DNA from: an uncultured bacterium
Lineage (GTDB): Bacteria; Armatimonadota; Hebobacteria; CAIYQO01
Assembly (NCBI GenBank): GCA_964590255.1
Contig: CAZPYA010000009.1
Span: forward strand, 791-64,790
Length of the DNA stretch: 64,000 nucleotides
Reading direction: 5' to 3'
Below the pieces are notes generated by a model. That model was not told where the DNA came from. It saw only the letters and a list, made by a program, of their open reading frames with translations, and did not search any database. Numbering within the stretch: position 1 is the first letter of the stretch; each line of letters opens with the position of its first letter. Shown here piece by piece: positions 2,626 to 39,320 of the stretch. Made by a program: the position numbers and the translations under genes.

Positions 2626-5600
2626 TCAGAACGTCGCCTTCCCCGCGCCGCTGGTCACTGTCACGCCGCCGGCTTGCGGGGCCACGGTGACGGCGGGTTG
2701 TGTTCCCTTATTGTAGGCGACGATGATGACCTGGAAGGCGCCGGCGCCTTTGAGGCGCAGGATGGACTGGGTTTCGGGCATGACGTTTTTGTGGGCGTAC
2801 TGGGCGATGAAGGCCTCCTGCGGCGCGTCCGCGATGACATAGACATCCCAGTCGATGCCGCCCGCGGGGTGCTTGTCGAAGGTTTGGCCGGTGTAATGCA
2901 GCTTGGTGACCCCGGCGGGGATGGTGAAGCCCTCGCCTACGTTCTTCGGCCCCTGCGGCGTGTCGATGGCGCCGGCGTTCATCAGGTTCAACAGGAAGAC
3001 CTTGTTTTCGGGGGTCGTGAAGGCATCGCGGATGCCGATGGCGGCCACGTCGTCCTTCAGCATCGCCGTCTTCACCGTGCGCGTCCAGGTGGTGGGTCCC
3101 CAGGTGAAGCTGGCGGTGGACCACGCTTCGCGCTCCCGCGTCTGCACGTCGATGGTCTTCGGCGCGCCCCAGCGGCCGCCCTTGCTCACGTCCGGCGGGT
3201 TTTGCTTCCAGTCGCCCACCTGCGCCTCGGGCAGCACCAGGCTGTGCACGAAGCCGCCGCCTGAGTGCGGCGAATACATGGTGCCGAAGTCCAGCGACAG
3301 CGGCGCGCCGAGGGCGTAGATGATCGCCTCGCCCAGGTCGTTGGAGGCGTGGTCGCTGTAGAAGCCGCCGTTGACGAACCAGGTGGCGGTTTCGTTGGGC
3401 GTGCCCCAGCCGAAGCGCTGCACCGAGTACCAGCCCTCAACGTGCGCCGAGCCCAGCTTCGGGTCGACCGCGGGCAGGCTCTCGTCGATTTTGAAGGTAG
3501 TGGCGCCGTGGAAGTCGGAGTGGGGCTTGCCGCACTGCTGCCACGCGCCCATCAATCGCTTGGAATAGTCGGGGTCGAGATCGGCGTAGGCGGTGGCGAG
3601 CATGCCGAGGAATTCGGTGGCCTCGCCCGGGCAGGAGTCGCCGATGGCCGGGCGGGCGCGGCGGCCGAAGCGCGGGTCGACCGGCGTGCTGAGGTGCATC
3701 TCGAACTCGCCATATTTCTTCAGCCGCGGCTCTTCCTTGAACAGGTCGACGATGCCCGCTTGCTTGAGCTGCTGGCAGGTGGAGAGCAGCGGGCCGTTGG
3801 CGGCGCCGATGTAGTGGGTGCAGCCCATGTGCGCGCCGTGCTCGTTGATGGTGCCGCGCACCATGCCCCGCGCGCGCTCGGCCACGCCGGCGGCGCGCTC
3901 CTTCATCATCGGGTGGGTGGCCAGGTACAGCGCATACATGTCGCGGTAGCCCTGCTGCTGCACGGGCATGTTGGCGGTGCCCAGGTTCACGCCAGACGGC
4001 ACGGACAGCGGGGCGTGGTCGTCGTCCCACAGCGCGGTGGCGTAGAAGAGCGCCGCCTGGCGCGCCAGCGCCTTGTCCTCGTCGCTGGCTTTGTCCGAGG
4101 CCAGCACCTGGTCGATGCGCATCAGCGCGCGGCTGCCTTCCAGCCCGGCGTGCCAGTAGCCGAAGCCGTGGGTGCCCATGATGCCGCCGCGGTTCACCAG
4201 CGTGTCCAGGCCGTCGTGCGCGCCGCGCCACAGGAAGTAGGCCATGGTATGCACGCGGGCGCCGGACTGGTCTTTGATCATGTCGAGCAGGTCGCGGAAG
4301 TAGGTGACGGAGTTATAGGCGCCGCGGAAGAACTCCGGGTCTTCGCGCAGCTTGCGCACGACCTCGTCCGCGCCTTTCTTCGGCATATACATCGCGCCGT
4401 AGCCGGCCTTAGGCGCCGGGAAGTCATAGGTGAGGTTGGCGATTTTGTTCAGCGCGATGCCGCTGTGCAGGTTCATCTGCAGATTGATGGGTTGGATGTC
4501 GCGCCAGTCGCGCAGGTCGGCGCCCTTGCTGCCCACGAAGAGGCGCCACTGCCAGCGCTTCTCGAGGCTGATGCGGCCGTCCGGCCCGCGCTGCCACGCC
4601 TGCACGGTGATGCCGGTGCTGTTATCGGTGCGGGTGTAGACGCCCACGCCCACCGCGCCGGCATGGCGCAGGCGCGAGGCGCGGCCGTCGTAGTAGCCGA
4701 CCAGCGGGCTGGCGTCCGCGCCGTCCTTGTCATAGAGCATCCAGTAGCTGCCACTGTCGAACATCCACGGGTCCCATGGCTGCATCCAGCGGATGCACCC
4801 CTCGTTCAGGCTGGTGACGTAGTTGGAGCTGTAGTTCTTATCGAACGGCAGGTCGAAGAAGGCATCGGTGGACTGGCTGCTCACCGGGCGACCGTCGGGC
4901 CGATAGCCGAACTTCGGGTCGCGCACACTGTGGCCGCGGTAGCGCGCCTGGGTCAGCGTCAGGCCTTTCAGGCTGATGTTGTAGCTGAAGGTGCAGTCGG
5001 TCTCTTCCTCGAAGAGCACGGAGGGCTGGCCGGCCTGCACCTCGACGCGGCAGACGTATTTGCCGGGGCCGGCGGGGCAGACGACGGTGGCGCCGTAGTT
5101 GAATTGCGCGCGGTCCAGCTCGTAGGTCAGCTCGGCGACGGTTTTCAGCGGGCCTTGCTCCACCAGGTTCACGGTCACTTTATTCACGCGCGTGCCGGGG
5201 GTGAAGACGATGGGGGCGGGTTCGTTCGTCCACGCGCCGTTCGCCAACTGCACGGCCAGCACCGGCGCGGGGGCTTTCTGCGGGTCGGCGGGGACGTGCG
5301 ACACGGGCAGGCGCACGCCCAGCTTGCCGTTGGTGATCTCCCAGAACGTCTTCTCCGCGGGCTGCGTCACCTTCACGCCAGTGGTGACGGCTTTCGGCGC
5401 GCGGCCACTCTTCAGCGTCCACGTCCAGTCGATGAGCAGCTCGTGAATGCCTGTGCCGGGAGTGAGCAGATCGATGGGTTTGCCGCCCGGCTCGGCGCTC
5501 ACGGCGAAGCGGTCGGCGGTGGCGTTGCACAGATAATAGGTGGCGCCGATCTTCAGCGGCTGCGGCAGTTCGCCGAAGCTGCGGAACTTCACCGGCGCGC

Positions 5601-6237
5601 CGTTGACCAGCTTGTGACTATGCACGTAAAGCGTATTGGCGTCGACATCGGCCACCAGCGCCTGGGCGGTGATGCCGGCGTCGGTGCCCTGCTTCTCGAT
5701 GGGGATGGGCGCGCCGTCGGGGGTTTCGGCCAGGCCGATGAAGTATAAGCCCCAGCCGCCCTCCTCGCGGAACTCCAGCGGCCGCACGTAGTAATTCGTG
5801 TTGCGCTGCAGGCCCGCGGGCAGCGCCGCGCCGTCCACCTGCACCACGTCGCCGGGGGTGAAGTAGGGGCCGTCGGTCGACAGGCACTTCTCCACGCCCT
5901 TCGTGTCGAATTTCTTATAATTCGCCGCCCAGCCTTCGCAGGTGTTGCTGAGGCCGCGACGGATCGCCATGCGCGAGGCGGCCAGGTGGGTGCGCACGGC
6001 GAGTTGTTTGCCGCCATTCACCAGTTGATACGGCACCTCAGCGCCGTTGGGCGCCAGCAGGTAGCACTTCGCCGGGTCGACGGGCGCGGCCAGGTCGAAG
6101 GTGAGAATCTGGTCGGGGTGCTGCACGCCGAAGGTTTCCTTCAGCGTGAAGGCCGCCACCGCGTCCTTCGGTGTGCCCGCCTGGCCAAATGCCGCCACGG
6201 CCAGCGCCGCCAGCAGCAAGTAGAGCAGTTGTCGCAT
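2626..6237 (-). CDS. large secreted protein, possibly polysaccharide lyase (heparinase II/III-like C-terminal region)
   Basis: Start re-picked at ATG 6237 (MRQLLYLLLAALAVAAFGQAG is a signal peptide); the track's longer 6357 start would overlap the neighbouring gene. The middle region (GYWHAGLEGSRALMRIDQV...ALWDDDHAPLS) looks alpha/alpha-toroid-like. SDHASNDLGEAIIYALGAPLSLDFGTMY resembles the heparinase II/III H-x-D...G...D-G...Y pattern. Function is tentative. Confidence 0.75.
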   Translation of the reverse strand: MRQLLYLLLAALAVAAFGQAGTPKDAVAAFTLKETFGVQHPDQILTFDLAAPVDPAKCYLLAPNGAEVPYQLVNGGKQLAVRTHLAASRMAIRRGLSNTCEGWAANYKKFDTKGVEKCLSTDGPYFTPGDVVQVDGAALPAGLQRNTNYYVRPLEFREEGGWGLYFIGLAETPDGAPIPIEKQGTDAGITAQALVADVDANTLYVHSHKLVNGAPVKFRSFGELPQPLKIGATYYLCNATADRFAVSAEPGGKPIDLLTPGTGIHELLIDWTWTLKSGRAPKAVTTGVKVTQPAEKTFWEITNGKLGVRLPVSHVPADPQKAPAPVLAVQLANGAWTNEPAPIVFTPGTRVNKVTVNLVEQGPLKTVAELTYELDRAQFNYGATVVCPAGPGKYVCRVEVQAGQPSVLFEEETDCTFSYNISLKGLTLTQARYRGHSVRDPKFGYRPDGRPVSSQSTDAFFDLPFDKNYSSNYVTSLNEGCIRWMQPWDPWMFDSGSYWMLYDKDGADASPLVGYYDGRASRLRHAGAVGVGVYTRTDNSTGITVQAWQRGPDGRISLEKRWQWRLFVGSKGADLRDWRDIQPINLQMNLHSGIALNKIANLTYDFPAPKAGYGAMYMPKKGADEVVRKLREDPEFFRGAYNSVTYFRDLLDMIKDQSGARVHTMAYFLWRGAHDGLDTLVNRGGIMGTHGFGYWHAGLEGSRALMRIDQVLASDKASDEDKALARQAALFYATALWDDDHAPLSVPSGVNLGTANMPVQQQGYRDMYALYLATHPMMKERAAGVAERARGMVRGTINEHGAHMGCTHYIGAANGPLLSTCQQLKQAGIVDLFKEEPRLKKYGEFEMHLSTPVDPRFGRRARPAIGDSCPGEATEFLGMLATAYADLDPDYSKRLMGAWQQCGKPHSDFHGATTFKIDESLPAVDPKLGSAHVEGWYSVQRFGWGTPNETATWFVNGGFYSDHASNDLGEAIIYALGAPLSLDFGTMYSPHSGGGFVHSLVLPEAQVGDWKQNPPDVSKGGRWGAPKTIDVQTREREAWSTASFTWGPTTWTRTVKTAMLKDDVAAIGIRDAFTTPENKVFLLNLMNAGAIDTPQGPKNVGEGFTIPAGVTKLHYTGQTFDKHPAGGIDWDVYVIADAPQEAFIAQYAHKNVMPETQSILRLKGAGAFQVIIVAYNKGTQPAVTVAPQAGGVTVTSGAGKATF

Positions 6238-6325
6238 GGGAATCCCCCTCGCATAGATGAACTTGATTCGATTGGACACTGGAACACGGTTATAGTTGTA
6301 CGCGGGGCGCTTCCCTGCCGCCGGG

Positions 6326-7492
6326 TCAGGACTCCGGCATGTCCCGGTCGAAGACATCGGGACCCAGCGGAGGGTCTTCCGTGTCCGCGGTTTTCGCCGG
6401 CGCGGGGGGCCCGGTGGGGACGGGCTCGGGCGAGCGGCCCTCGTGGATGAGCGGGTAATACCACTCGTTGTAGAGCACCTTGATCACCGCGGCGGCGGGG
6501 ACGGCGATGATGGCGCCGAAGAGGCCGAAGAGGCCGGAGAAGATGACCAGGGCAAAGATGAGGCTGACGGGATGCAGGTTCAGCGTTTTTTGCATCACCA
6601 TCGGCACGATGAGGTTGTTTTCCAACTGCTGGATGATGAGGAAGGCGAACACCACCATCACGCCCAGGAGCGGATTGATGGAGAAGCCCACCAGCGCGGG
6701 CAGCGCGGTGGCGATGATGGGGCCGACCACCGGCACGACTTCCAGCAGCCCGCCGATGACCGCGAAGGTCTCGATAAAGGGGATGTTGTGCGGCGAAAAG
6801 GCGTTGATGAGCAGCAGCGCCACGTAGTTCAGCGTGCCGATGATGATCCCCAGCAGCAGCGTGCCGAGCACCCAGCCGCGGATGCCGGCGGCGGCGCCGG
6901 CGCCGATGCGCTCCAGTTGCGGCCACCAGGCAGAAGGAAATAACCCGCGAATGCCGTAGAGTAACGGCAGCGGCTGCAACAGGGTATAGATCGTCGACAC
7001 GAGCACCAGCAGGCTGGCGGTGATGATCCCGACGACGCCGGCGAAGATGGTGCGCGCGGTATTAAAGAGCCAGCCGGAGGCATTGCCCAATTCGCCGAAG
7101 ATGCGGTTGGCGTCCAGCGCCGCGGTCAGGTCGGGGTAGCGCGCGAGCAGCGGGGCGAAGCGAGCGACGGTGGCCGTCCAGAAGGCCGGCAACTGCGCGA
7201 TGAACTCCTCACCCTGTGCCATTAGGCGCGGCACGACCAGCGCGATGACCAGACCGACGAACAGCAGCATGCCGGCGACGACCAGGGCGACAGCCGCGCC
7301 GCGCGGCACGCGGCGATTGGTGAGGCGGCGCACGAGGGGTTCCAGCGCCAGCGCCAGCAGCACCACGACGATGAAGAGCTGCAGCACCGACCAGACCAGC
7401 GGCGCGAGAATGAAGAGGATGACGACCGCGGCGACCAGCGCGATGGTGGTGGTGATCAAGCGCAGGGCGTGCGGATATCTGGAATCGGGCAT
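6326..7492 (-). CDS. AI-2E family transporter (PerM/UPF0118)
   Basis: 8-TM profile with the family-typical C-terminal block LEVVPVVGPIIATALPALVG...IIQQLENNLIVPMVMQKTLNLHPVSLIFALVIFSGLFGLFGAIIAVP. SD GGAGGA lies 8 nt before ATG 7492. Confidence 0.9.
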   Translation of the reverse strand: MPDSRYPHALRLITTTIALVAAVVILFILAPLVWSVLQLFIVVVLLALALEPLVRRLTNRRVPRGAAVALVVAGMLLFVGLVIALVVPRLMAQGEEFIAQLPAFWTATVARFAPLLARYPDLTAALDANRIFGELGNASGWLFNTARTIFAGVVGIITASLLVLVSTIYTLLQPLPLLYGIRGLFPSAWWPQLERIGAGAAAGIRGWVLGTLLLGIIIGTLNYVALLLINAFSPHNIPFIETFAVIGGLLEVVPVVGPIIATALPALVGFSINPLLGVMVVFAFLIIQQLENNLIVPMVMQKTLNLHPVSLIFALVIFSGLFGLFGAIIAVPAAAVIKVLYNEWYYPLIHEGRSPEPVPTGPPAPAKTADTEDPPLGPDVFDRDMPES

Positions 7493-13299: not shown

Positions 13300-13745
13300 C
13301 CAGCCGTTGAAACGGCTGGCTCGGTTCAGTCGTCCTTTCAGGACTGGCGGGGCGGGTATATGGTTCCAGCTTCTGTCTCCAGCCGTTGAAACGGCTGGCT
13401 AGATTCGGTCGTCTCTACGAGATTTGCGGGTAGGTATTCGGTTGCCGGGCTGCGTGATTGGCGATGAGGTGATGCCGGTACTTTCTCCAGCCGTTGGAAA
13501 TGGCTGGCTCGGTTCAGTCGTCCTTCCAGGACTGGCGGGGCGGGTATATGGTACCAGCTTCTGTCTCCAGCCGTTGAAACGGCTGGCTAGATTCGGTCGT
13601 CTCTACGAGATTTGCGGGTAGGTATTCGGTTGCCGGGCTGCGTGATTGGCGATGAGGTGATGCCGGTGTGCCTAATCGGACGCCACTCCGCCGCTGCTGC
13701 GTGGCTGACTACGAACGGGTTTTGTTGGTGAGCTGACCTATGATT
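13300..13745 (+). repeat. tandem structured repeat (family E): two ~187-bp units plus a conserved tail
   Basis: Hairpin CCAGCCGT-TGAA-ACGGCTGG at 13300-13319, 13379-13398, 13487-13507 (variant) and 13567-13586. Unit period is 187-188 bp. Tail cggacgccactcc...tgcgtggctgactacgaacgggtt..gtggtga.ctgacctat at about 13670-13745. A second locus lies at 33998-34200. Confidence 0.85.
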
Positions 13746-17016: not shown

Positions 17017-17238
17017 GCCCCTCCGCCGCGCCCCCCGTCGTCTACCGATAGCGGACGGGGAGCTACCATGAGAGTATAGCAAAACTAGACAAGAACATCA
17101 AGCAACCCCTCTCCCGTCCGGCGCGGGGATGGTACAGATCTGTCCACATTTTCGTCCATGTCGCGCGCATATGCGCCGCGGCATGCGGAATACTACGGAG
17201 GAGCATCATCACAGTACGATTCGTGGAAAGGAGGCGGC

Positions 17239-17472
17239 ATGCGATTGGTTTCGCGCATACTCTCGTTGGTTTCGTTTTTCCTCGTCATCATTGGTGCGGT
17301 CAACTGGCTGCTGGTGGGGTTGACCCACTTTGACCTGGTGCGTTGGCTCTTCGGGCCGAAAAGCCTGTGGAGCCGCATCGTCTACAGCCTGGTGGGCACG
17401 GCCGGGGTGAACGAGCTGACGAACTTCATCATCCGGAGCGTCCGCACGCGGACGCTTTCGGCCATTCCGTAA
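17239..17472 (+). CDS. DUF378 small membrane protein
   Basis: SD AAGGAGG lies 4-5 nt before ATG 17239. FFLVIIGAVNWLLVGLTHFDLV..LFG....SRIVYSLVGTAGV matches the DUF378 signature (GA.NW.L.G...FDLV). Confidence 0.85.
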   Translation: MRLVSRILSLVSFFLVIIGAVNWLLVGLTHFDLVRWLFGPKSLWSRIVYSLVGTAGVNELTNFIIRSVRTRTLSAIP

Positions 17473-17507: not shown

Positions 17508-17750
17508 ATGCGTACCATGAATATGATTACACTGATCCTGGTCATCGTCGGCGCGTTGAACTGGCTGCTGGTGGGCCTGTTTGGGTTCGATCTGGTAGCG
17601 TGGCTCTTCGCGGACGGCTTTGGCACGCGGTCAATGCTCAGTAATCTCGTCTATCTCCTCGTCGGGCTCTCCGGCGTCTGGTTGCTCTTCACGCTGGTGC
17701 CGGCACTCAGCACCACGCCGACCTGGCGTGAGGCGCCCGACACCGCGTAG
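17508..17750 (+). CDS. DUF378 small membrane protein (tandem paralog)
   Basis: LILVIVGALNWLLVGLFGFDLVAWLF...NLVYLLVGLSGV. SD-like AGGAAGAGG lies upstream. Confidence 0.85.
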   Translation: MRTMNMITLILVIVGALNWLLVGLFGFDLVAWLFADGFGTRSMLSNLVYLLVGLSGVWLLFTLVPALSTTPTWREAPDTA

Positions 17751-18125: not shown

Positions 18126-18302
18126 TCCAGTATGCGGCTCGACTAGCGTCTCGTCCGCCAGTAATTGCGTGGCGCCGCCAACTCGCGCCGGTTTTGTGGC
18201 TCGCTCAATACACCATGCTTACCGATTATCTAGACGGGGTATGCCCCAGTCAGTATAGTGAGGCAACTGTGCCTGTACCGTGAACAGGCAACGGAGGCAG
18301 CT

Positions 18303-19277
18303 ATGGACCGCGAGATGAGAATCCGCGCCTACCGGCAGATGGTGCTCATCCGCCACTTTGAAGACAAAGCGGGCGAGATGTATGGCCGGGGCAAGATCGG
18401 CGGCTTTCTGCACCTGTATATTGGCGAAGAGGCGTGCGCGGTGGGCGCGATTGCCGCGTTGCGCCCAGACGACTACATCACCACCCATTACCGCGACCAT
18501 GGCCACGCGCTGGCGAAGGGCAGTTCGGCGCGGGCGGTGATGGCGGAGCTGTTCGGCAAGCGCACCGGGGTGAGCCTGGGCCTGGGCGGCTCGATGCACC
18601 TTTTCGATGCGGAGCACCGGATGATGGGCGGCTACGCCATTGTCGGCGGCCACATCCCCATCGGCATGGGCATCGCGCTGGGCGCGCGGAAGCTGGGGAA
18701 AGACCACGTCTGCGCGGTCTTTTTTGGCGATGGCGCGGTGAACGAGGGCGAGTTCCACGAGGCGCTGAACATGGCGTCGGTGTGGAAACTGCCGGTGGTC
18801 TTCTTCTGCGAGAACAACTTCTACGCCATGGGCACCGCCATCACCCGCACCTCGGCGGTGACGGAAGTATACCGCCGTGCCGAGGCCTACGCCATGCCCG
18901 GCCAGCGCGTGGACGGCATGGACGTGGAAGCTGTATACCGGGCGATGTCCGACGCGGTGGCGCGGGCGCGCGGCGGCGGCGGGCCGACGCTGATCGAGGC
19001 GCTCACCTATCGTTTCAAAGGTCACTCCATGGCGGATGCGGTGGGCTATCGCACCCGCGAGGAAGAGGCGGAGTGGCACCCGCGCGACCCCATCGCCGTG
19101 CTGCGCGAGCGGCTGCTGGAGAGTGGCGAGGCGACCGAGGACGCACTGCAGGTCATCGACGCGGAAGTGCGCGCCGAAGTGGACGATGCCGTGCGCTTCG
19201 CTGACGAAAGCCCCGAACCGACGATGGCGGACGTGCTGGCGTCGGTGTACGCGCCGTGCCGGGCCTGCGCGGAATAG
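18303..19277 (+). CDS. pdhA: pyruvate (2-oxoacid) dehydrogenase E1 alpha subunit
   Basis: YRQMVLIRHFEDKAGEMYGRGKIGGFLHLYIGEEA...HYRDHGHALAKG...GSMH...FFGDGAVNEGEFHEALNMA..WKLPVVFFCENNFYAMGT (TPP-binding E1-alpha motifs). SD GGAGG lies 5 nt before ATG 18303. Confidence 0.95.
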   Translation: MDREMRIRAYRQMVLIRHFEDKAGEMYGRGKIGGFLHLYIGEEACAVGAIAALRPDDYITTHYRDHGHALAKGSSARAVMAELFGKRTGVSLGLGGSMHLFDAEHRMMGGYAIVGGHIPIGMGIALGARKLGKDHVCAVFFGDGAVNEGEFHEALNMASVWKLPVVFFCENNFYAMGTAITRTSAVTEVYRRAEAYAMPGQRVDGMDVEAVYRAMSDAVARARGGGGPTLIEALTYRFKGHSMADAVGYRTREEEAEWHPRDPIAVLRERLLESGEATEDALQVIDAEVRAEVDDAVRFADESPEPTMADVLASVYAPCRACAE

Positions 19278-19287
19278 GAGGCGCACC

Positions 19288-19373
19288 ATGATTATCACCT
19301 ATCGTGAAGCGGTTGTCGTTGCCACAGAAAAACGAACGGGGATGCGAAAATGATTATCACCTATCGTGAAGCG
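19288..19373 (+). repeat. 24-nt exact direct repeat of the pdhB start codon region, creating a 21-codon uORF (19288..19353)
   Basis: ATGATTATCACCTATCGTGAAGCG occurs at 19288-19311 and again at 19350-19373. The first copy follows the strong SD AGGAGG and reads MIITYREAVVVATEKRTGMRK-TGA. Its TGA (19351-19353) overlaps the pdhB ATG (19350-19352). Confidence 0.9.
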
Positions 19374-20321
19374 ATACGCCAGGCGCTCCGCGAGCTGCTG
19401 AAAGACCCGGCGGTGTTCCTTATGGGCGAGGACATCGGCGCCTATGGTGGCGCTTTCGCCGTCACGAAGGGATTTCTCGATGAATACGGTCCCGAGCGCA
19501 TCATGGATACGCCAATTTCCGAGTCCGGACTGGTGAGCGCGGCCATCGGCGCGGGCATGGCCGGCGCGCACCCGGTGGTGGAGGTGATGACCATCAACTT
19601 CACGTTACTCGCGTTCGACGCGCTGGTGAACCACGCGGCGAAAATCCACGCCATGTCCGGCGGGCACGTGGACGTGCCGCTCATTCTACGCACTGTCACC
19701 GGCTCGGGCAACCAGCTTGGCGCGCAACACTCGCAGAACATCGAGGGGCATTACGCCATGGTGCCGGGCCTGAAGGTGCTGGCTCCCGCCACGCCGGCCG
19801 ACGCGAAGGGCTTGCTGCTGTCCGCGTATTACGAGCCGAACCCGGTCTTCATCACCGAGCATTTCGCGCTGTATAACACGAAAGGCGAGGTGGACGAGAA
19901 GCCGGTGCGCGTGCCTATCAACACGGCGAACATCATGCGCGAGGGCAGCGACATCACGCTCATCGCCTACTCGCGCATGGCGATCGTCTGCACCCAGGCC
20001 GCCGAGCTGCTGGCGCAGGACGGCATCAGTGCCGAGGTGCTGGACATGCGCACGCTGCGCCCGCTGGACCTGGACACCATCTTTACCTCCATCGCCAAGA
20101 CGCACTACGCGGTGATGGTGGAGGAAACGGGCAAAGGCACCAGCATCGGCGGCTCGCTTATCGCCGAGGTGCAGGAGCAGATTTTCGATGAGCTGCGCGG
20201 TCCCATCCGCTGGGTGGCCGGCCTGCCCGTGCCTATGCCATACAATAAAACACTCGAACGCGAAGCGATACCCAATGCCGCCAGCATCGCGCAGGCGGCG
20301 CGGGAGTTGTTGAAGGCGTAA
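19350..20321 (+). CDS. pdhB: pyruvate (2-oxoacid) dehydrogenase E1 beta subunit
   Basis: MIITYREAIRQALRELLKDPAVFLMGEDIGAYGGAFAVTKGFLDEYGPERIMDTPISESGLVSAAIGAGMAG..PVVEVMTINF is a typical E1-beta sequence. Confidence 0.95.
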   Translation: MIITYREAIRQALRELLKDPAVFLMGEDIGAYGGAFAVTKGFLDEYGPERIMDTPISESGLVSAAIGAGMAGAHPVVEVMTINFTLLAFDALVNHAAKIHAMSGGHVDVPLILRTVTGSGNQLGAQHSQNIEGHYAMVPGLKVLAPATPADAKGLLLSAYYEPNPVFITEHFALYNTKGEVDEKPVRVPINTANIMREGSDITLIAYSRMAIVCTQAAELLAQDGISAEVLDMRTLRPLDLDTIFTSIAKTHYAVMVEETGKGTSIGGSLIAEVQEQIFDELRGPIRWVAGLPVPMPYNKTLEREAIPNAASIAQAARELLKA

Positions 20322-20359
20322 CGATACACAGACACATTGTTTCGGTACCAATCGGTTGC

Positions 20360-20573
20360 TCTGGTCCCCCGGATTGAAATCCGGGGCTGGAGAGACGAAG
20401 TCGGCCTACGCCGACTGGCCGGATCGGTTAATGGATACAGCGACGCATTGCTGACCGTGCCATGCGTGTGGGAGGAGTATATGCGCGAAAATGGGTACAG
20501 CAACGCATTTCCGGCTTCCCTATATTCGGTTACTATGTGCCTGATTGGGAAATGCGTTACAGTCCCCATTTTT
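20360..20573. repeat. composite hairpin/repeat block after pdhB (includes a family D pair)
   Basis: Hairpins ccccggattgaaatccgggg and agtcggc-ctac-gccgact. Family D arms are GAAAATGGGTACAGCAACGCATTTCC (20487-20512) and GGGAAATGCGTTACAGTCCCCATTT (20547-20573). Confidence 0.8.
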
Positions 20574-20600
20574 GGGCGATTGCGTTTTTGAGGAGATAAT

Positions 20601-20843
20601 ATGGCCACCACCGATGTCATCATGCCCCAGTTGGGCTTCGATATGGAAGAGGGCACTCTTCAGCGCTGGTTGAAGCAGGTGGGCGACCACGTGGAGCGCG
20701 GGGACGCCCTTGCCGAGGTGGAGACGGAGAAGGTGACGCTGCAGGTGGAGAGCTACGCCACCGGCACGCTGACCGCCATCATCAAGCACGAAGGCGAAAC
20801 CGTGCCCGTCGGCGAGAAGATCGGGGAGATTGAGGAAGGATAG
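20601..20843 (+). CDS. stand-alone lipoyl-attachment domain (N-terminal part of a split PDH E2)
   Basis: IMPQLGFDMEEGTLQRWLKQVGDHVERGDALAEVETEKVTLQVESYATGTLTAII is a lipoyl domain with the E-T-E-K lipoyl-lysine motif. The ORF ends at TAG 20841-20843, directly at the domain boundary. Confidence 0.85.
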   Translation: MATTDVIMPQLGFDMEEGTLQRWLKQVGDHVERGDALAEVETEKVTLQVESYATGTLTAIIKHEGETVPVGEKIGEIEEG

Positions 20844-20857
20844 GACCGGCTCGGTAG

Positions 20858-20936
20858 TCGGCCCCCCTCCCCAGCCCTCCCCCCGTGCCCTCCGTAACAC
20901 TGCGTGCACAGGGGGAGGGCCGGGGAGGGGGGCCGA
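20858..20936. repeat. GC-rich palindromic element (family C) inserted between the two E2 ORFs
   Basis: Arm tcggcccccctccccagccctccccc (from 20858) pairs with gggggagggccggggaggggggccga (to 20936), one mismatch, about 26-nt loop. Related copies lie at about 38705-39040. In the E2 frame the segment from the lipoyl-ORF stop through this element carries TAG 20841 and TAA 20895. Confidence 0.8.
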
Positions 20937-20978
20937 GTAGGCACCATGTTTCGTCTGCAACGACCAAAGGAGCATCCC

Positions 20979-21647
20979 ATGGCCTCACCCATGCGCCAGG
21001 CGATTGCGCGGCATATGTCGCACAGCAAGCAGAATATCCCCCATTACTACCTGACGATGTCTGCCGACATGGGGGCGGCGATGGCGCGGCGGACGGCGTG
21101 GAACGCCGCGCATGACGAGGACGCGCGCGTGTCGGTGAACGACCTCGTGGTGAAGGCGGCGGCCATCGCGCTGGCCAGCCACCCGCGCTTCAACGCCTTC
21201 TATCAGGATGACGACGGGCACCCGCAGGCGCGAATCAATATCGGTATTGCCGTGGCGTTGCCGGACGGGTTGATCGCGCCCGCCATTCTCGGCTGCCAGG
21301 CGCTGACCATCGACGAGATTGGCCGGCGCGGGCGCGATCTGGCGGCGAGGGCACGGCAGAAAACACTGAAAGCGGAAGAATATACCGCCGGCACCTTCAC
21401 GATTACCAACCTGGGGATGTACAATGTGGACAGCTTTGCCGCCATCATCGTGCCGCCGCAGGTGGCCATATTGGCCGTGGGCAGCGTGATGGAGACGCCG
21501 GCCGTGCACGATGGACATATCATCGTGGCGCGCCGGGCGGCCTTGACGCTGTCGGCCGACCACCGTGCCAGCGATGGGGCGGAAGGCGCATTGTTCCTGG
21601 GAGAAATTATTTCGTGCCTGCAGAATCCGGAAATCCTGTTCACGTAA
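20979..21647 (+). CDS. 2-oxoacid dehydrogenase acyltransferase catalytic domain (C-terminal part of a split PDH E2)
   Basis: SPMRQAIARHMSHSKQNIPHYYLT...NDLVVKAAAIALASHPRFNA...IGIAVALPDGLIAPAI...GTFTITNLGMYNVDSFAAIIVPPQVAILAVG...LTLSADHRASDGAEGALFL contains the catalytic DHRxxDG. It has its own SD AAGGAG (20967-20972) 6 nt before ATG 20979. Same reading frame as 20601..20843. Confidence 0.85.
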   Translation: MASPMRQAIARHMSHSKQNIPHYYLTMSADMGAAMARRTAWNAAHDEDARVSVNDLVVKAAAIALASHPRFNAFYQDDDGHPQARINIGIAVALPDGLIAPAILGCQALTIDEIGRRGRDLAARARQKTLKAEEYTAGTFTITNLGMYNVDSFAAIIVPPQVAILAVGSVMETPAVHDGHIIVARRAALTLSADHRASDGAEGALFLGEIISCLQNPEILFT

Positions 21648-22540
21648 CCCCCCGTTATGCCGCTGACGATCCCCGCGTGGGGTCGGCGGTCGGCGCGCGC
21701 CGGCCTGAGTGGCTGAAGGTGCGCGTGCCCGTTGGCGAGAACTATCACGACCTGAAGAAACTGGTGCGCGCCCACCGCCTGCACACCGTGTGCGAGAGCG
21801 CGCGCTGCCCGAACATTGGCGAGTGCTGGCAGTCGCGCACCGCCACCTTCCTCATTCTCGGCAACACCTGCACGCGGCGCTGCGCCTTCTGCGCGGTCGC
21901 CAGCGGGCAACCCACCGAATACGACCTGGACGAGCCGCGCCGCGTGGCGGAGGCGGTGGCGGCGCTCGATCTCAAATACGCGGTGATCACCTCGGTGACC
22001 CGCGACGACCTGGCCGACGGCGGCGCCTTCATCTTCGCCGAGACGATTCGCGCGGTGCGCGCGGCGGTGCCCGGCTGCCGGGTGGAGGTGCTCATCCCCG
22101 ATTTTCAAGGCGACGCCGACGCGCTGGCGGCGGTGGTGGCGGCGAAGCCGGACGTGCTGAACCACAACATCGAGACGGTGGCGCGCCTCTACAGCCTGGT
22201 GCGGCCGCAGGCGGACTATCGCCGCTCGCTGGAACTCATCAGCCGCGCGAAGGCCATCGACCCGGCGCAGACGACCAAATCCGGCTTGATGCTGGGGCTG
22301 GGGGAAACGGCGGACGAGGTGGAGGGCGCGCTGCGCGACCTGCGCGCCGCCGGCTGCGACATCGTCACCATCGGCCAGTACCTGCGCCCTTCAGCCGACC
22401 ACCTGCCGGTGCAGAAATACTGCGAGCCGGAGGAATTCGCCCATTATGCCGCCGTCGGCGCCGCCCTCGGCTTCCAACACGTGGAATCGGCGCCGCTGGT
22501 GCGGTCGTCGTATCATGCGCGGGAGCAGGCGGAGGGGTAA
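21614..22540 (+). CDS. lipA: lipoyl synthase
   Basis: RPEWLKVRVP...LHTVCESARCPNIGECW...TATFLILGNTCTRRCAFCAV has both LipA cysteine clusters. Start is uncertain: GTG 21614 overlaps the E2 end, and a later in-frame GTG also exists. Confidence 0.93.
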   Translation: MPAESGNPVHVTPRYAADDPRVGSAVGARRPEWLKVRVPVGENYHDLKKLVRAHRLHTVCESARCPNIGECWQSRTATFLILGNTCTRRCAFCAVASGQPTEYDLDEPRRVAEAVAALDLKYAVITSVTRDDLADGGAFIFAETIRAVRAAVPGCRVEVLIPDFQGDADALAAVVAAKPDVLNHNIETVARLYSLVRPQADYRRSLELISRAKAIDPAQTTKSGLMLGLGETADEVEGALRDLRAAGCDIVTIGQYLRPSADHLPVQKYCEPEEFAHYAAVGAALGFQHVESAPLVRSSYHAREQAEG

Positions 22541-22550
22541 GCGTGTATGG

Positions 22551-22638
22551 GGGAAATGGGTACAGCAACGCATTTCCAGCGGGCGCAGGATCGTATACCT
22601 GACGCATGAACGGGAAATGCGTTACAGTCCCCATTTCC
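22551..22638. repeat. family D inverted-repeat element after lipA
   Basis: GGGAAATGGGTACAGCAACGCATTTCC (22551-22577), 34-nt spacer, GGGAAATGCGTTACAGTCCCCATTTCC (22612-22638). Same pair as at 20487-20573. A solo arm lies at 25579-25604. Confidence 0.85.
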
Positions 22639-22726
22639 TCTGCTTCGTGTCCTCGCTTCGCGCATTCTCGCCGTCCGCTGCCGGATACAATGAGCGCGGA
22701 ACCCATTGCGCAAGGAGGGCGAAACG

Positions 22727-23026
22727 ATGGCGGTGGTGGCGGATATTTCGTTGATTCCGGTGGGCACGCAGTCCACCAGTTTGAGCCAGATGCTGGCGGA
22801 CAGCGTGAAGGTGCTGGACCAGTTCGGGCTGACGTATGACGTGACCCCCACGGGCACGAACGTGGAGGGCGACCTGGACACGATTTTCCAGGCGGTGAAG
22901 GCGATGGAGGAGGTGCCGTTTCAGGAGGGGGCCGACCGGGTGGTGATCCTGCTGAAGCTGGACGACCGGCGGGACAAGAATATCTCGCTGGATTACGAGG
23001 AGCGATCGCTGGAAGAGAAGTTGTAA
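22727..23026 (+). CDS. MTH1187/YkoF-family (DUF77) thiamine-binding-like protein
   Basis: SD AAGGAGG lies 8 nt before ATG 22727. MAVVADISLIPVGTQSTSLSQMLADSVKVLDQFGLTYDVTPTGTNVEGDLDTIFQAVKAM matches the UPF0045/MTH1187 pattern. Confidence 0.8.
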   Translation: MAVVADISLIPVGTQSTSLSQMLADSVKVLDQFGLTYDVTPTGTNVEGDLDTIFQAVKAMEEVPFQEGADRVVILLKLDDRRDKNISLDYEERSLEEKL

Positions 23027-23083: not shown

Positions 23084-24280
23084 TTAATCGAAGAGGAACG
23101 CGCCGGCGTGATCGACTTCCGCGCCGCCGGCGCCGCGCCAGATTTTTATCTGGATGGAGCCGGTGAAGCCGATATTCACATACATGCCCGACTTGCGGGT
23201 GGCGTTGTCCTGGCAGTGGGTTTTATCGCGCGGGAGCAGAATCGTCGGGGTCGCTTTGGCGGGGGTGGCCACGCTGACGACTTTGATATACTGGTCGCCG
23301 CCGGTACCGCTCCACGGATCATACTGCATGGTGTAGTAAGTGAGGGTGTGCGGCGCCGTTTCGGTGGCCGCGACGTTGACGGTCATCACCAGCGCGCCGG
23401 CTTCAGTGGTGCCGAGTTTGCGCGGGCCGCAGGCGGACATCAACGCGCCGCGATAGGTACCCTTGCTGCATGTGAGCGAGGCATAGTTGGCGCCATCGAA
23501 GAACTTCCACGCCGTGTCATAATTCGTCACGGAGTATGACGTCTGTCCGGATGGATATCCCAGCTTTGTGGCGGCATCGATATCCCAGCTGGTGACCCAG
23601 CTTGGAACCTGTTTCACTTGCGTGCTCTGGAAGATGATGTAGCCGGCAGTGCCGCGTTCGGGGATGTTGCACACCACGCCGGCGCCGCTGCCGGTCAGTT
23701 TGAAGGGCACCGGGCTGCCGTCGGGCACGATTACCCAGTTGTTCATCAGCACCACGTCCCAGAAGGTCAGTCCGGCGGGCACGGTTGCTCCCTGCACGTG
23801 GCCATCCGCGAAGGCCAGCACGGCCGCCTTGTTGTGACGGGTATCCACCTGAGTGTCGACGTCGGTGATGGTGTAGTTGGCGTTGACCGGCGGCATCACC
23901 ATGTCGGCGACCATGACGGTGTCAGACGGACGCTTATTGTCGCCGGCCGCCACGCCGAAGAAGTAGCCGTTGAGGCCGTATTCCGGCGTGGTGTTTTTCC
24001 CTTTGCCGGTTTTCGTCGGGCAGTCGTAGAGGCTGGGCTCGTTGTAGTCCTTCAACAGGGATGACCAGGCGTTGTTCTTCGTATCCGGCATGTAGGTCTC
24101 TTCATTGTCCTGGACATACATGCTAAGGGCCAGCGCGATCTGGCGCTGGTTGTTGAGACAGGTGTTCATGCGGGCCTTTTCACGGGCCTTCGCGAACACA
24201 GGGAAGAGGATGGCGGCCAGGATGGCGATAATGGCGATCACCACCAGCAGCTCAATGAGGGTGAAACCTCGGGCGCGCAT
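23084..24280 (-). CDS. prepilin-type N-terminal domain protein, DUF1559 / H-X9-DG family, with long C-terminal extension
   Basis: [61 protein letters not shown] (G-F-T-L-I-E cleavage/methylation motif). H-X9-DG at [23 protein letters not shown] lies upstream. Confidence 0.9.
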
Positions 24281-26770: not shown

Positions 26771-29359
26771 CTATGGCGTGGCCGGCGCCTGTTGACGCAC
26801 CCGTACCATTTTCACCAGTTCAAACCAGACGACGCTGCCGATGCCCGCAGCCAGACAAATGCCGACTTGTGTACCTGTGAGAGGCGCAAACTGGAACAGC
26901 CTGGCCAGTATCGGGATATTCAGCAAACACAGCATGAGCAGCGTGGCTCCGCCGACGACCCACCACATGGCGCTGTTCGATGATCGCAAAGTCGCCAGCA
27001 GGCTTCTTGTCCAGGACACATTGGTGAGTATTAATAGTAGATTGGCCGTGATTAGCGTGACGAACGCCATCGTCCGCGCCGCGGCTTCTCCCATCGCCCA
27101 TTGCTGCGCTACCATAAACACCCCCAGGCTGACGAATAAAATACTGGCGCCTTGTACCAGACTCGTTATGAGCGTCGTGCGGTCGAAGATGGATTCCCGC
27201 GGCGAGCGCGGTGGGCGATGCATGACGTTGCGCTCCTCGGGTTCAGCCTCAAAGACGGTCGAGCATGCCGGGTCGATGATCAATTCCATCAGGACGATGT
27301 GGATGGGGAGCAATAATAACGGCCACCCCAACGTGATCGGAATCAACGATAGCCCGGCAATCGGCACATGAATGGAGAAGATATATGCCATCGCCTTGCG
27401 GAGATTGTCGTAAATGCGGCGCCCCAACCGCACGGCGGCGACGATAGAGGAAAAGTCATCTTCCAGTAAGACTAATCCGGCGGCTTCACGCGCCACGTCC
27501 GTCCCGCGTCCGCCCATGGCGATGCCAATATCAGCGGCTTTGAGCGCCGGCGCGTCATTGACGCCGTCGCCAGTCATGGCCACCACTTCACCCGTCGCCT
27601 GCAGTGCCTGTACCAGGCGCAACTTCTGCTCCGGCACCACGCGCGCAAAGACATTGATCTGGCGCACCTGTTCACGCAATGTCGCATCGTCCATTTGCAT
27701 GAGTGCATCGCCCGTCAAGACATTTTCGGGTGACCTCAACCCGATTTGCCGGGCAATGGTCCGTGCGGTCGCCGGATAATCGCCGGTGATCATTACCACA
27801 CGAATACCGGCGTTAGCGCATTCCGCAATGGCGGCGGGGACGGACGGACGGACGGGATCGATGAGGCCGACCAGCCCGAGAAAGCGAAAGTCAAAGTCGT
27901 GCTGTATTGCCGGCAACGCCGTGCCGTTTGGTATGTCGGCGCACGCAACACCCAGTACCCGAAGCCCGCGACTCGCCATCTCGTTAATGCTGACCGCGAG
28001 TTGCTGGCGTTGTGCTTCATCGAAGTGACACAGATCGGCTATCGCTTCCGGAGCGCCTTTGGTGGCGATGATATACGCGTTACGCGTCGTCGATCGCCAG
28101 ACCTGCGACATCGCCAGCAGTTCCGGCGATAATGGGTATTGCTGCACGACGGTCCAATCCTCGTGCAGGTGTTCCGTTTGGGCCAGATGCACTTGCCCAA
28201 ACCGATGGAAGGCCTTTTCCATGGGATCGAAGGGGTCGCGTTGGCTGGCGAGGATACTGAATTCAACCAGCTCATGTAATGCATCCGGCAGCGGTTCGCT
28301 CTGCCCGGGCATGATCTGATGTGTCACGTCCCCGGCGTTCAACTCGCCGACCGACATTTGATTGAGCGTGAGGGTTCCGGTTTTATCCACGCATAACACG
28401 GTGGCAGATCCCAATATTTCTACCGCGTGCATGCGACGGGCCAATACTTGCCGGCGTGAGATGCGCCAGGCGCCCAGCGCCAGGAAGATCGTCAGCACGA
28501 CCGGGAATTCTTCCGGCAGCATCGCCATCGCCAGTGCGACACCAGCCAGCACGCCATGCAACCAGTCGCCGCGCATCAGGCCATACACCAGCATGACGAT
28601 CACGCTTAGGCCCAGGCCGACTATAGCTAGATTGCGCACTAATCGCCTGGTCTGTTTTTGCAGGGCAGTCTGTTCAGGCACGAGAAGCTGCAATGATTTT
28701 CCGATTTTCCCGATTTCGGTGTGCAACCCCGTCCGTAGTATTGTAATGGTGGCCTGCCCCTGCACGACCAATGTGCCGGAGTAGACAAACGGTTCGTCTT
28801 CCCCACCGGGACGCTGCATGTCCGTTTTGCCGTCCCAGGTCCGTTTCCGTACGGGAACGGATTCTCCCGTAAGTAGCGACTCGTCAACCGACAGATTCGT
28901 AGCTACACGAATCGCCCCATCCGCGGGAATACGGTCGCCTTCCGCTACCAATATGACATCTCCCCGCACGACCTCGCGTCCAGGAATGAAACGCGCATCG
29001 CCATCACGGATAACGCGCGCCCGTGGGCTGGATAGATTCTTCAACGCTTGAAGTGCGTTTTCAGTTTTGCGCTCCTGGTAGAGTGTGATGCCAATAATGA
29101 CAAACACAAACCCGAGCAACAGCAACGCTTCTTGCAGATCGCCAAGCAGCAAATAGATGGTGCCACCGGCCAGTAGGAGTAAAAACATGGGCTCACGCAG
29201 CACTTCCAGAGTAATCTGCAGCAGACTGCGCGGCTTGGCCGATGGTAATTCATTCGGGCCATCTTGCAGCAGACGTGCAGCGGCTTCCGCCGAGGAGAGT
29301 CCCGTCAGAATGTCCTCCACGTCATGTTCTACTTCACGACGATCTGATTGGTCTGTCAT
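26771..29359 (-). CDS. cation-transporting P-type ATPase (P2-type, Ca2+/Mg2+-like)
   Basis: LTGES, VLCVDKTGTLT (phospho-Asp), MITGDYPATA, VAMTGDGVNDAPALKAADIGIAMG, and N-terminal GLSSAEAAARL...GPNEL. About 10 TM helices. GC is visibly lower than the neighbours (27001-27060: 27/60). Confidence 0.95.
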   Translation of the reverse strand: MTDQSDRREVEHDVEDILTGLSSAEAAARLLQDGPNELPSAKPRSLLQITLEVLREPMFLLLLAGGTIYLLLGDLQEALLLLGFVFVIIGITLYQERKTENALQALKNLSSPRARVIRDGDARFIPGREVVRGDVILVAEGDRIPADGAIRVATNLSVDESLLTGESVPVRKRTWDGKTDMQRPGGEDEPFVYSGTLVVQGQATITILRTGLHTEIGKIGKSLQLLVPEQTALQKQTRRLVRNLAIVGLGLSVIVMLVYGLMRGDWLHGVLAGVALAMAMLPEEFPVVLTIFLALGAWRISRRQVLARRMHAVEILGSATVLCVDKTGTLTLNQMSVGELNAGDVTHQIMPGQSEPLPDALHELVEFSILASQRDPFDPMEKAFHRFGQVHLAQTEHLHEDWTVVQQYPLSPELLAMSQVWRSTTRNAYIIATKGAPEAIADLCHFDEAQRQQLAVSINEMASRGLRVLGVACADIPNGTALPAIQHDFDFRFLGLVGLIDPVRPSVPAAIAECANAGIRVVMITGDYPATARTIARQIGLRSPENVLTGDALMQMDDATLREQVRQINVFARVVPEQKLRLVQALQATGEVVAMTGDGVNDAPALKAADIGIAMGGRGTDVAREAAGLVLLEDDFSSIVAAVRLGRRIYDNLRKAMAYIFSIHVPIAGLSLIPITLGWPLLLLPIHIVLMELIIDPACSTVFEAEPEERNVMHRPPRSPRESIFDRTTLITSLVQGASILFVSLGVFMVAQQWAMGEAAARTMAFVTLITANLLLILTNVSWTRSLLATLRSSNSAMWWVVGGATLLMLCLLNIPILARLFQFAPLTGTQVGICLAAGIGSVVWFELVKMVRVRQQAPATP

Positions 29360-29930: not shown

Positions 29931-30422
29931 GTCACCGACCCCTTTCGCGATATACCGGGGCATACTGAAAATGCGGAATAAAAAACCCCGCAGTGCATGT
30001 CCGCGCTGCGAGGCATCATTATCCCCGCAGAACGGTGTTTCGTGGAATTGCCCCATCACATCTCCACGATACATCAATCCCACGGGATCGTAATTATCCC
30101 GTTGCCTATCAAGGCCCAGCCGCATCCCAGTCGTATTGGGACCGCCTGATTCTAAAAACAGTATAGCCCGGGAGGCATGCTCAGTCAAGCCGGCATTGAT
30201 GGGTTCGTAATACCAGTTGTACCGAGTGTGATTCGCATGACGCACTCTCACGAGACTGATTTCGGAAGTGACGCCGGTTCAACTTCGTGTTATTGCATGG
30301 TATGGCTATCCCGATGCTTCCATACGCCGGCCTTCCGGCGCAATTCCCCCGTCCTCTTGCCCGCTGGCCCGGCGATGCGCTATAGTGCAGTTGTCACTTA
30401 CCGCAGACATGGAGGCATGATC

Positions 30423-38620: not shown

Positions 38621-39320
38621 GGGCGGTGACGCCCCCTCACCCCCTGCCCCCTCTCCCCGAGGCCCCGTGGCAAGGGGATATTTGCTGGCACACCCGGTGT
38701 GCCTGATCGGCCCCCCTCCCCGGCCCTCATTCGCGCTGCATTTATGCCTAATCGGCCCCCATCCCCCAGCCCTTTCCCCCGCTCCACTGCGCTGCGCAAG
38801 GGAAGGGGAGAACGGTGCCATGACGCGGCACACTCGACCACAATGTAGACGCTCAATATGCACTAATGTAGCGCGTATGTCCCCGGCCCTCCCCCCGCTC
38901 CGCTGCGCTGCGCAAGGGAAGGGAGATGGCACATGACACCGTAACAGCCTCGTATAACCAGCTACAGTGTTACACGATTGACATACTCCTCCCTTGCGCA
39001 GCACAGCGGAGCGAGGGAGGGGAATGGGGTGGGGGCCGATGACCAGCAGCGCGATTACTGAATCATGACGTCTATGGGGGCAGGGGGTGAGGGGGCGAGT
39101 ATTATTCGCGGCTCGACGGAGTCTCGCCCAATACCGTTCAAATACGGGCTCTCGACCGCCACGCGCCACCTCTCCCCCAGACCCCTCCCCTACGTGGGGA
39201 GGGGGGAGTGATGAGGAAAAAAGACGGCGTAGGAGGCTGGTTCGCCACACGCAGCAGGCTTATTTGAATGGCATTGGGGCTCCCGCCCTGTTCCAGACAG
39301 TAACTACAGCTTGGTACCGG
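38621..39320. repeat. 700-bp intergenic repeat cluster (families A, B, C nested)
   Basis: A 22-nt perfect long-range inverted repeat: cgccccctcaccccctgccccc (38630-38651) / gggggcagggggtgagggggcg (39076-39097). Several family C units are present (atcggccccc.tcccc.gccct...gctcc.ctgcgctgcgcaagggaaggg), both forward and inverted (about 38985-39040). One full family A element lies at 39109-39287. Confidence 0.85.

Follow-up and report, generated by a model that had tools for sequence, protein, structure and literature searches.

A pyruvate dehydrogenase (PDH) operon of an uncultured Armatimonadota bacterium encodes its acetyltransferase component, E2, as two separate proteins. The operon lies in a 64-kb stretch of DNA (GenBank contig CAZPYA010000009.1), here called the window, and positions are numbered along that whole stretch; loci of relatives carry handles of the form L001 and protein clusters handles of the form P0002. 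In the window, a gene for an 80-residue lipoyl-domain protein is followed, across a spacer that holds a GC-rich palindrome, by a gene for a 222-residue catalytic protein, with no peripheral subunit-binding domain (PSBD) detected in either product. We conclude that this is probably an intact operon in which E2 operates as a free lipoyl carrier plus a bare core, giving an untethered PDH, and in which the palindrome is secondary. An earlier note on this DNA had offered two readings of the locus, a pseudogene or a two-polypeptide E2 with a free-standing carrier. The two-polypeptide arrangement proved to be conserved throughout a clade, while its biochemical working is something we infer.

The genes run on the + strand in the order DUF378 (twice), pdhA, pdhB, lipoyl carrier gene, E2 catalytic gene and lipA:

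17158–17472 and 17508–17750, + strand: DUF378 pair, small membrane proteins (PF04070, E about 1e-20 each)
18258–19277, + strand: pdhA, E1 alpha (PF00676, E = 2.8e-94; the open reading frame (ORF) call starts at GTG 18258)
19350–20321, + strand: pdhB, E1 beta, 323 aa (PF02779 and PF02780)
20322–20600, + strand: enlarged spacer between the E1 beta and lipoyl genes, 279 nt (12–41 nt in most relatives)
20601–20843, + strand: lipoyl-domain gene, 80 aa, predicted lipoyl-lysine K44 within ETEK (PF00364)
20854–20944, no strand assigned: palindromic dispersed repeat, GC-rich, about 91 nt (from inverted-repeat scan, word depth and contig divergence)
20967–20972, + strand: Shine-Dalgarno site AAGGAG of the catalytic gene, read from the sequence, 6 nt 5' of the ATG and not covered by the hairpin
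20979–21647, + strand: E2 catalytic (acetyltransferase) gene, 222 aa, with DHRASDG (PF00198)
21614–22540, + strand: lipA, lipoyl synthase (NF004019, 433.9 bits)

Two complete domains in two genes

The E1 genes identify the operon as one for PDH. E1 alpha cleared the PDH equivalog TIGR03182 PDH_E1_alph_y (442.8 bits against a cutoff of 393.85), and E1 beta scored above the subfamily cutoff of NF006667 (370.5 bits against 321). The likely start of pdhA is ATG 18303, which gives a protein of 324 aa, within the 318–324 aa of relatives.

The lipoyl ORF holds a complete domain with its ETEK motif, as the earlier note had read it. It matched PF00364 over profile positions 2–73 of 73 (E = 1e-18; 67.4 bits, cutoff 22.1), has GAGGAG upstream of its ATG and stops at TAG 20841–20843. 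K44 aligned with the lysine of the DK(A/V) motif in the lipoyl domains of human and Mycobacterium tuberculosis E2p, the E2 of PDH, and was invariant in all 20 lipoyl sequences compared. An AlphaFold (AF2) model reached a pLDDT of 91.3, placed K44 in the turn between strands 36–41 and 46–50, and superposed on the human E2p L2 domain with a TM score of 0.91. The best PDB and NCBIfam matches were E2 lipoyl domains, and the closest sequence was the lipoyl domain of a fused relative, L010; the match to PF01597 GCV_H reached only E = 0.0029, under that family's cutoff. An acidic C-terminal tail (E-I/M-x-E-x) is conserved. Lipoylation of K44 is a prediction from sequence, for which the co-operonic lipA is circumstantial support.

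The catalytic ORF is equally complete. It matched PF00198 over profile positions 10–231 of 232 (E = 3.3e-70; 236.6 bits, cutoff 23), and H195, R196, D199 and G200 of its DHRxxDG motif were invariant across 19 catalytic sequences. Residues 3–218 aligned to the human E2p core 3b8k (E = 3.5e-42), and the AlphaFold (AF2) monomer model (pLDDT 88.3) showed a complete, confident fold, with TM scores of 0.91–0.94 to human, pig, Listeria and E. coli E2 cores in Foldseek. The protein has no linker, PSBD or lipoyl domain. Its best NCBIfam match, TIGR01349 (mitochondrial-type E2p), covered model positions 215–434 of 437, and neither part reached the cutoff of 445 for this canonical-E2p model (217.3 for the catalytic ORF, 59.3 for the lipoyl ORF). 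A C-terminal hydrophobic ...LF motif is kept; given what is known of E2 cores, which form trimers and 24- or 60-mers, this is compatible with a higher-order core and at most suggestive of one.

The two ORFs are separated by a 135-nt spacer and lie in the same frame, with starts 378 nt apart. The restart at ATG 20979 with AAGGAG 6 nt upstream, and the two stops in the lipoyl frame, TAG 20841 and TAA 20895, are all present as first noted. At its other end, the catalytic gene overlaps lipA by 34 nt (21614–21647), and the same 34-nt overlap recurs in the P0002 contig, L004 and L006. This conservation in the closest relatives suggests translational coupling of the core with lipoyl synthase.

The split is conserved across an Armatimonadota clade

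Ten related Armatimonadota lineages, with catalytic proteins 59–86% identical to that of the window, all share the two-gene layout; nine are represented by DNA and one, the P0002 contig, by gene calls only. In every context that could be read (L001, L002, L004/L089, L006, L007/L092, L090, L091, L093 and the P0002 contig), the order was E1 alpha, E1 beta (323–330 aa, window included), lipoyl gene (79–82 aa), catalytic gene (218–223 aa) and lipA. Protein searches widened this set. The catalytic ORF retrieved about 65 clusters at 55–86% identity, all of 210–239 aa and all with PF00198 only, and those carrying a name came from Armatimonadota metagenome-assembled genomes (MAGs). The lipoyl ORF retrieved 53 clusters of stand-alone lipoyl proteins (79–82 aa, 63–100% identity), which bear the name 'lipoyl domain-containing protein [Armatimonadota bacterium]'. 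A neighbour-joining tree built from the 120 best matches placed the split proteins in one clade, separate from Chloroflexi-type E2s. The clade comprises about 55–70 protein clusters, all of them split.

A relative with the locus as a single ORF would have spoken for a broken gene; the clade holds none with a contiguous E2 gene. The closest fused relative found was L010, an 'Armatimonadetes' groundwater MAG. Its E2 is canonical, with 437 aa, and its lipoyl domain, which shares the ETEKV motif, is connected by one linker to a PSBD and by a second to the catalytic domain.

The sequence between the two genes varies widely. Four loci are split without any palindrome and have short lipoyl–catalytic spacers: 12 nt (L093), 47 nt (P0002 contig), 48 nt (L002) and 57 nt (L090). 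The other spacers measure 110, 114, 116, 128, 135 (window) and 176 nt. Relatives' catalytic genes are offset from the lipoyl frame by 0 or 2, the latter at five loci out of nine, and the stop codon of the lipoyl gene is TAA, TAG or TGA depending on the locus. In relatives, too, the catalytic gene follows a site of the AAGGAG or GGAGG kind. The short, palindrome-free spacers are likely the ancestral state, judging from this comparison.

These data bear on the idea that stop-codon read-through or frameshifting yields a fused E2. The window offers some basis for it: the ORFs share a frame, and translation across the spacer gives the Pro/Ala-rich, linker-like stretch RPPSPALPPCPP that the earlier note had pointed out, the read-through peptide ending in ...SRPPSPALPPCPP before a stop. 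The ribosome would, however, have to pass two stops in the window, and the offset of 2 in five of the nine relative loci makes the shared frame a coincidence. With spacers of 12–176 nt and unrelated sequence, three different stop codons, and a catalytic gene with a conserved Shine-Dalgarno site and a Met start of its own, recoding is implausible, and we give it practically no weight.

In a background set from an alignment-based search of genome contigs, nearly all of the roughly 75 loci among the matches listed were fused E2s, with N-terminal extensions of 160–300 aa. Among about 98 other E2 loci fetched, three showed the same split, PSBD-less layout, each next to E1 alpha and E1 beta genes:

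L022:2910–3853: Actinomycetes MAG, stop and start overlapping in TGATG
L067:about 1871–2796: Actinomycetes MAG, stop and start overlapping in GTGA
L081:3183–4136: Thauera MAG, TGA stop, 3 nt, GTG start

Their catalytic domains are only 38–42% identical to that of the window, which points to separate origins; these splits probably arose independently of the Armatimonadota one.

Several further candidates were rejected. The apparent short E2s of L118 and L202 reflect a 10-N scaffold gap (about 3940–3950) and a 100-N gap (about 3880–3980), respectively, each inside a normal E2. P0083 (L119, position 1) and P0085 sit at the very start of their contigs, while the gene of P0119 (L203, position 69) begins 68 nt from a contig end; none is a real split. 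All rejected stand-alone or PSBD-plus-catalytic-only candidates were at most 55% identical to the catalytic ORF. More generally, many public 215–218-aa catalytic or PSBD-plus-catalytic 'proteins' are artefacts of N gaps or contig ends that mimic split E2s, in which the gene caller picks a conserved Met of the catalytic domain as the start.

The palindrome is a repeat inserted into an existing spacer

The inverted repeat between the ORFs has arms of 41 nt at 20855–20895 and 20899–20939, which are 85% complementary and separated by a 3-nt loop; the whole element extends over 20854–20944, somewhat beyond the first reading of it. GTAG occurs at 20854–20857 and 20937–20940, and the second in-frame stop, TAA 20895–20897, falls within the palindrome. 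The RNA of 20840–20985 folds at −89.3 kcal/mol (z = −6.6), and none of 200 shuffled sequences was as stable. Consensus scans found no promoter or terminator-like site in the spacer and no T-run after the palindrome, so that an intrinsic (rho-independent) terminator was rejected. Rfam held no family for the element, giving only sub-threshold, generic hairpin matches to eukaryotic miRNA precursor models.

Logan data indicate that the element is multi-copy. Word depth was 60–290 in the arms against 3–9 in the flanks (a 10- to 40-fold rise), many Logan contigs diverged at 20854/20858 and 20944, and L200 switched to another gene exactly after 20944. Together, the depth jump and the divergence identify the palindrome as a dispersed repeat of about 91 nt. 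The earlier note needs one correction: within the window the exact palindrome occurs once, with only two loosely similar CCCCTCCCC-type palindromes, at 2412–2520 and 38887–39022.

A homologous element occupies the same site in L006 (L006:3511–3584). Elsewhere in the clade, the lipoyl–catalytic spacer has taken up other palindromes:

L001:5885–5975: arms of 30 nt by the repeat scan, lengthening to a stem of about 40 bp when folded as RNA
L007:3841–3950 (L007/L092): perfect arms of 39 nt; L004 keeps a degenerate remnant
L091:about 1437–1533: GGGGTTAGGG-type

These elements are unrelated and amount to at least four separate acquisitions in this spacer (window/L006, L001, L007/L092 and L091), compared with about two in the E1 beta–lipoyl spacer (window and L090) and one possible case in the E1 alpha–E1 beta spacer. 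The pattern suggests that the lipoyl–catalytic spacer is an insertion hotspot or permissive site, or that a hairpin is selected there. Because relatives without a palindrome have the same split, the comparison indicates that the palindrome is a later insertion into a pre-existing spacer and not the cause of the split.

The element resembles repetitive extragenic palindromic (REP) and REPIN sequences: it is an imperfect palindrome of about 90 nt, multi-copy and intergenic, and sits between cistrons of an operon. It has GTAG at its 5' end, and no RAYT (Y1 transposase) was found, although no search aimed at one was made. In E. coli, the intercistronic REP of the malEFG operon stabilises the upstream mRNA. 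The window's palindrome carries a 25-nt arm motif common to several phyla, which is unusual for REPs.

That motif, GGCCCCCCTYCYCRGCCCTCCCCCC, occurs at 20860–20884 and 20910–20934, and its exact copies number at least 80 across GTDB representative genomes (L120–L199). One Chloroflexaceae MAG and several Longimicrobium MAGs have dozens of them, and others occur in Chthonomonadaceae, Planctomycetota, Myxococcales, Rhodobacter and another Armatimonadota MAG. The motif is always part of a CCCTCCCCCC-loop-GGGGGGAGGG hairpin, set inside differing larger repeats.

A second inverted-repeat family has arms AATGGGTACAGCAACGCATTTCC and an imperfect complement, 35 nt apart. Its copies, one at 20483–20577 within the enlarged E1 beta–lipoyl spacer (arms 20483–20512 and 20548–20577) and one at 22552–22638 just after lipA, bracket the lipoyl, catalytic and lipA genes.

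Both genes are maintained and supported by independent data

Against eight relatives, at dS values of 0.4–1.9, the ratio of nonsynonymous to synonymous substitution rates (dN/dS) was 0.09–0.24 for the lipoyl gene and 0.20–0.32 for the catalytic gene, values that place both genes under purifying selection. Conservation is higher for the lipoyl protein (74–90% identity) than for the catalytic one (59–82%). Freshwater metatranscriptome contigs covered 20424–20695, including the 5' end of the lipoyl ORF, and 21102–21643 within the catalytic ORF; a further RNA contig, 20879–21029, runs from the right half of the palindrome into the beginning of the catalytic ORF. Contig depth here was low, at 2–3.

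The earlier note had asked for a check of read support across the stops, and the stops held. An independent Joint Genome Institute (JGI) assembly, L201, spans the lipoyl ORF, the palindrome and the start of the catalytic ORF and does not differ from the window there. In four freshwater or lake metagenomes, Logan contigs cover both flanks without differences, and none is a stop-free variant.

The pseudogene reading, in which a recent repeat insertion broke a normal E2 and left two decaying remnants, can be weighed against this record. It draws on the position of the palindrome, exactly between the two domains and with an in-frame TAA, and on the missing linker–PSBD region of canonical E2. Yet palindrome-free relatives with spacers of 12–57 nt are equally split, as are all of the roughly 55–70 clade clusters, and an insertion of 91 nt cannot explain the loss of about 140 codons. 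Each ORF moreover has its own Shine-Dalgarno site and start, encodes a complete domain, is under purifying selection and is covered by RNA contigs. The description of an E2 'split by' the repeat, like that of a pseudogene, therefore falls away, and we consider decay very improbable here.

No subunit-binding domain and no E3 at the locus

The absence of a PSBD, reported in the earlier note, was confirmed by two profiles. PF02817 gave no match at E ≤ 0.1 in the lipoyl or catalytic ORF and matched none of the approximately 65 clade catalytic proteins. A PSBD hidden Markov model (HMM) of our own, built from 12 canonical E2 loci, recognised the domain in all 23 independent control loci (E ≤ 5e-9). 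The same model found no PSBD in the six-frame translation of the 64-kb window and none in the loci of nine relatives, where the best value, E = 0.04, fell within a DUF378 gene. Pfam scans of 30 further window ORFs revealed no E3, no E2 and no other 2-oxoacid dehydrogenase part.

A PDH without a PSBD could still be a stable assembly, with both E2 polypeptides, E1 and E3 joined through other interfaces and working like a tethered complex; the lipoyl protein might dock on the core or on E1, or E1 beta or E3 might bind the core directly. The unusually strong conservation of the lipoyl protein is what a protein with many partners would be expected to show, its acidic tail is conserved, and the ...LF motif kept in the catalytic domain is compatible with a higher-order core. 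Against such an assembly, neither product has a linker, and E1 alpha (324 aa), E1 beta (323–330 aa), the lipoyl protein and the catalytic protein all lack extra domains or extensions. We regard a hidden assembly as possible but unlikely.

The 80-aa protein might instead be mainly a carrier for lipoyl assembly, a LipA substrate that passes the cofactor on, or the core might use the lipoyl domains of another E2 encoded elsewhere, in the way of OdhA in Corynebacterium. GcvH in Bacillus passes its lipoyl cofactor on as the first idea supposes, and in the clade the operon always includes lipA, which overlaps the gene for the core. There is, moreover, a recognised class of single-domain lipoyl proteins whose role is unclear (PMC3904984), with B. 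subtilis BLAP as an example (PMC4016012). The position of the lipoyl gene, always between pdhB and the catalytic gene, and its E2p-type sequence with L010 as nearest match speak against a relay; the core would otherwise have no lipoyl source in the operon, hence no substrate. On balance, a relay role appears quite improbable.

A working model for an untethered PDH

Our preferred reading, a free carrier and a bare core in an intact operon, suggests the following course of events. An ancestral canonical E2 would have lost its linker–PSBD–linker segment of about 140 residues in one uncultured Armatimonadota clade, becoming a pair of cistrons, both complete with stop, Shine-Dalgarno site and start. 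The 80-aa protein would be lipoylated on K44, with the operon-encoded LipA inserting sulfur. E1 (alpha2beta2) would reductively acetylate the free carrier, which would diffuse to the bare core and give up its acetyl group to CoA before being re-oxidised by an E3 encoded elsewhere. Because PSBD and tether are both missing, the lipoyl protein would act as a soluble co-substrate, like an H-protein, and not as the swinging arm of an assembled complex.

The palindrome would have entered a short existing spacer, leaving the Shine-Dalgarno site free. As the recurrence of palindromes in this spacer hints at a possible role for an mRNA hairpin, we speculate that the hairpin could protect the upstream mRNA or cause partial termination, so that E1 and carrier would be in excess over core and LipA. 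A high carrier level may be advantageous because activity in vitro is not saturated by lipoyl domain. In its broadest form, the proposal is of a loose-enzyme PDH whose carrier-to-core ratio is set by captured intercistronic hairpins, and which arose in Armatimonadota and, independently, in Actinomycetes and Thauera. We offer this extension tentatively, as possible but somewhat short of probable.

Several considerations weigh against the model. Untethered operation is deduced solely from missing domains, and a docking interface independent of any PSBD is possible. The window and the relatives' loci contain no E3 redox-disulfide motif, and elsewhere the genome may encode a protein with a PSBD, a further canonical E2 or an E3 of unusual type. 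All clade members are MAGs or metagenome contigs, known from sequence alone. RNA support is thin, with Logan contigs at a depth of 2–3 and DNA carry-over possible. Finally, the repeats in the E1 beta–lipoyl spacers of the window and L090 imply that operon spacers may simply tolerate insertions, which counts against a hairpin that tunes expression.

The 2-oxoacid dehydrogenases are the textbook case of channelling, with core-tethered lipoyl arms and PSBD-docked E1 and E3. If the model is right, tether and docking domain are dispensable in nature, which has so far been shown only for engineered E. coli domains, and the operon supplies a minimal set of separable parts with which to measure what tethering contributes. 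The palindromes that recur in this spacer also provide a natural setting in which to test an effect of REP-like hairpins on expression ratios inside an operon. There is a practical side for annotation too: the labels these genes now bear are 'lipoyl domain-containing protein' and 'dihydrolipoamide acetyltransferase family protein', a few catalytic matches elsewhere are marked 'partial', and split E2 genes could be counted as a broken PDH when metabolism is reconstructed from MAGs.

Neighbouring genes and other features of the window

The DUF378 pair stands 5' of pdhA in most relatives (L001, L002, L004, L007 and the P0002 contig). Its RNA contig depth in metatranscriptome X19, about 17, was the highest in that run and far above that of the PDH genes. 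On the 3' side of lipA, near the thiamine diphosphate (ThDP)-dependent E1, a thiamine-binding protein gene (22706–23026, + strand; PF01910, E = 2e-27) had the top RNA contig depth of the region (8–20) in three runs and showed no synteny in relatives.

Farther away, the window holds the following:

13300–13345, + strand: Acido-Lenti-1 small RNA motif (42.2 bits against a gathering score of 37)
23084–24280, − strand: 398-aa protein whose only Pfam match is a prepilin-type N-terminal methylation motif (PF07963)
26771–29359, − strand: 862-aa ORF which, from its translation, we take to be a P-type cation ATPase
30073–30162, − strand: NiCo riboswitch (43 bits against a gathering score of 37), about 700 nt upstream of the 862-aa ORF
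41369–41441, − strand: one tRNA gene

Four large ORFs had no match in Pfam: 2626–6357, 45466–48852, 48907–51273 and 57005–59701.

Comparison with known systems

In the full-text literature, we found no description of a natural E2 made of a lipoyl gene and a catalytic gene without a PSBD. The Pelobacter 'lipoyl carrier protein' that surfaced there is GcvH-like and unrelated. Compared with canonical E2p (Geobacillus stearothermophilus, human DLAT, the Chloroflexi proteins P0099 and P0113, and L010), the locus shares the PF00364 and PF00198 families, the DHRxxDG motif, the lipoyl-lysine and an alpha/beta E1. Canonical E2p is, however, a single chain with a PSBD and Ala/Pro linkers, whereas the locus has two genes without PSBD or linkers and no visible tether for E1 or E3.

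A functional parallel is the glycine cleavage system, in which GcvH is a small, free lipoylated carrier that moves between separate enzymes, dihydrolipoamide dehydrogenase among them. The likeness is in function only, a free carrier shuttling between partners; family, partner enzymes and chemistry all differ.

Small stand-alone domains of about 75–80 aa are also found among the single-domain biotin/lipoyl proteins, which include B. subtilis BLAP/YngHB (PMC4016012) and an archaeal class termed 'single domain proteins' (PMC3904984). No partner has been assigned to these proteins, and BLAP is not a substrate of its own organism's lipoylating enzymes, whereas the gene described here is embedded between pdhB and the E2 catalytic gene and encodes an E2p-type lipoyl domain.

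An acyltransferase domain that works without a covalently attached lipoyl domain is known from Actinobacteria. In OdhA/Kgd with E2p of Corynebacterium and Mycobacterium, a catalytic domain that lacks a lipoyl domain draws on lipoyl domains provided in trans, and the E2p cores are small and non-canonical, another departure from the textbook megacomplex (commentary PMC8740704; PMC12995895). There the core is fused to E1o, and the lipoyl domains are tethered to a PSBD-bearing E2p; at our locus the lipoyl domain is free, and no PSBD was seen.

A biochemical precedent comes from dissected E. coli enzymes. A free lipoyl domain and a separate catalytic domain, combined with E1o and E3, make NADH (Chakraborty et al. 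2018, PMC5986005). The kcat/Km of the split E2o was 0.124e6 M−1 s−1 against 1.07e6 M−1 s−1 for the intact protein, about 9-fold lower, with no saturation up to 70 µM lipoyl domain, and the authors describe E2p as similar (PMC5986005). These are the components of the locus without their covalent link, although the E. coli system was engineered and its E1 and E3 are normally PSBD-bound. Because the split E. coli domains support the overall reaction, an untethered PDH of the kind proposed here is biochemically feasible.

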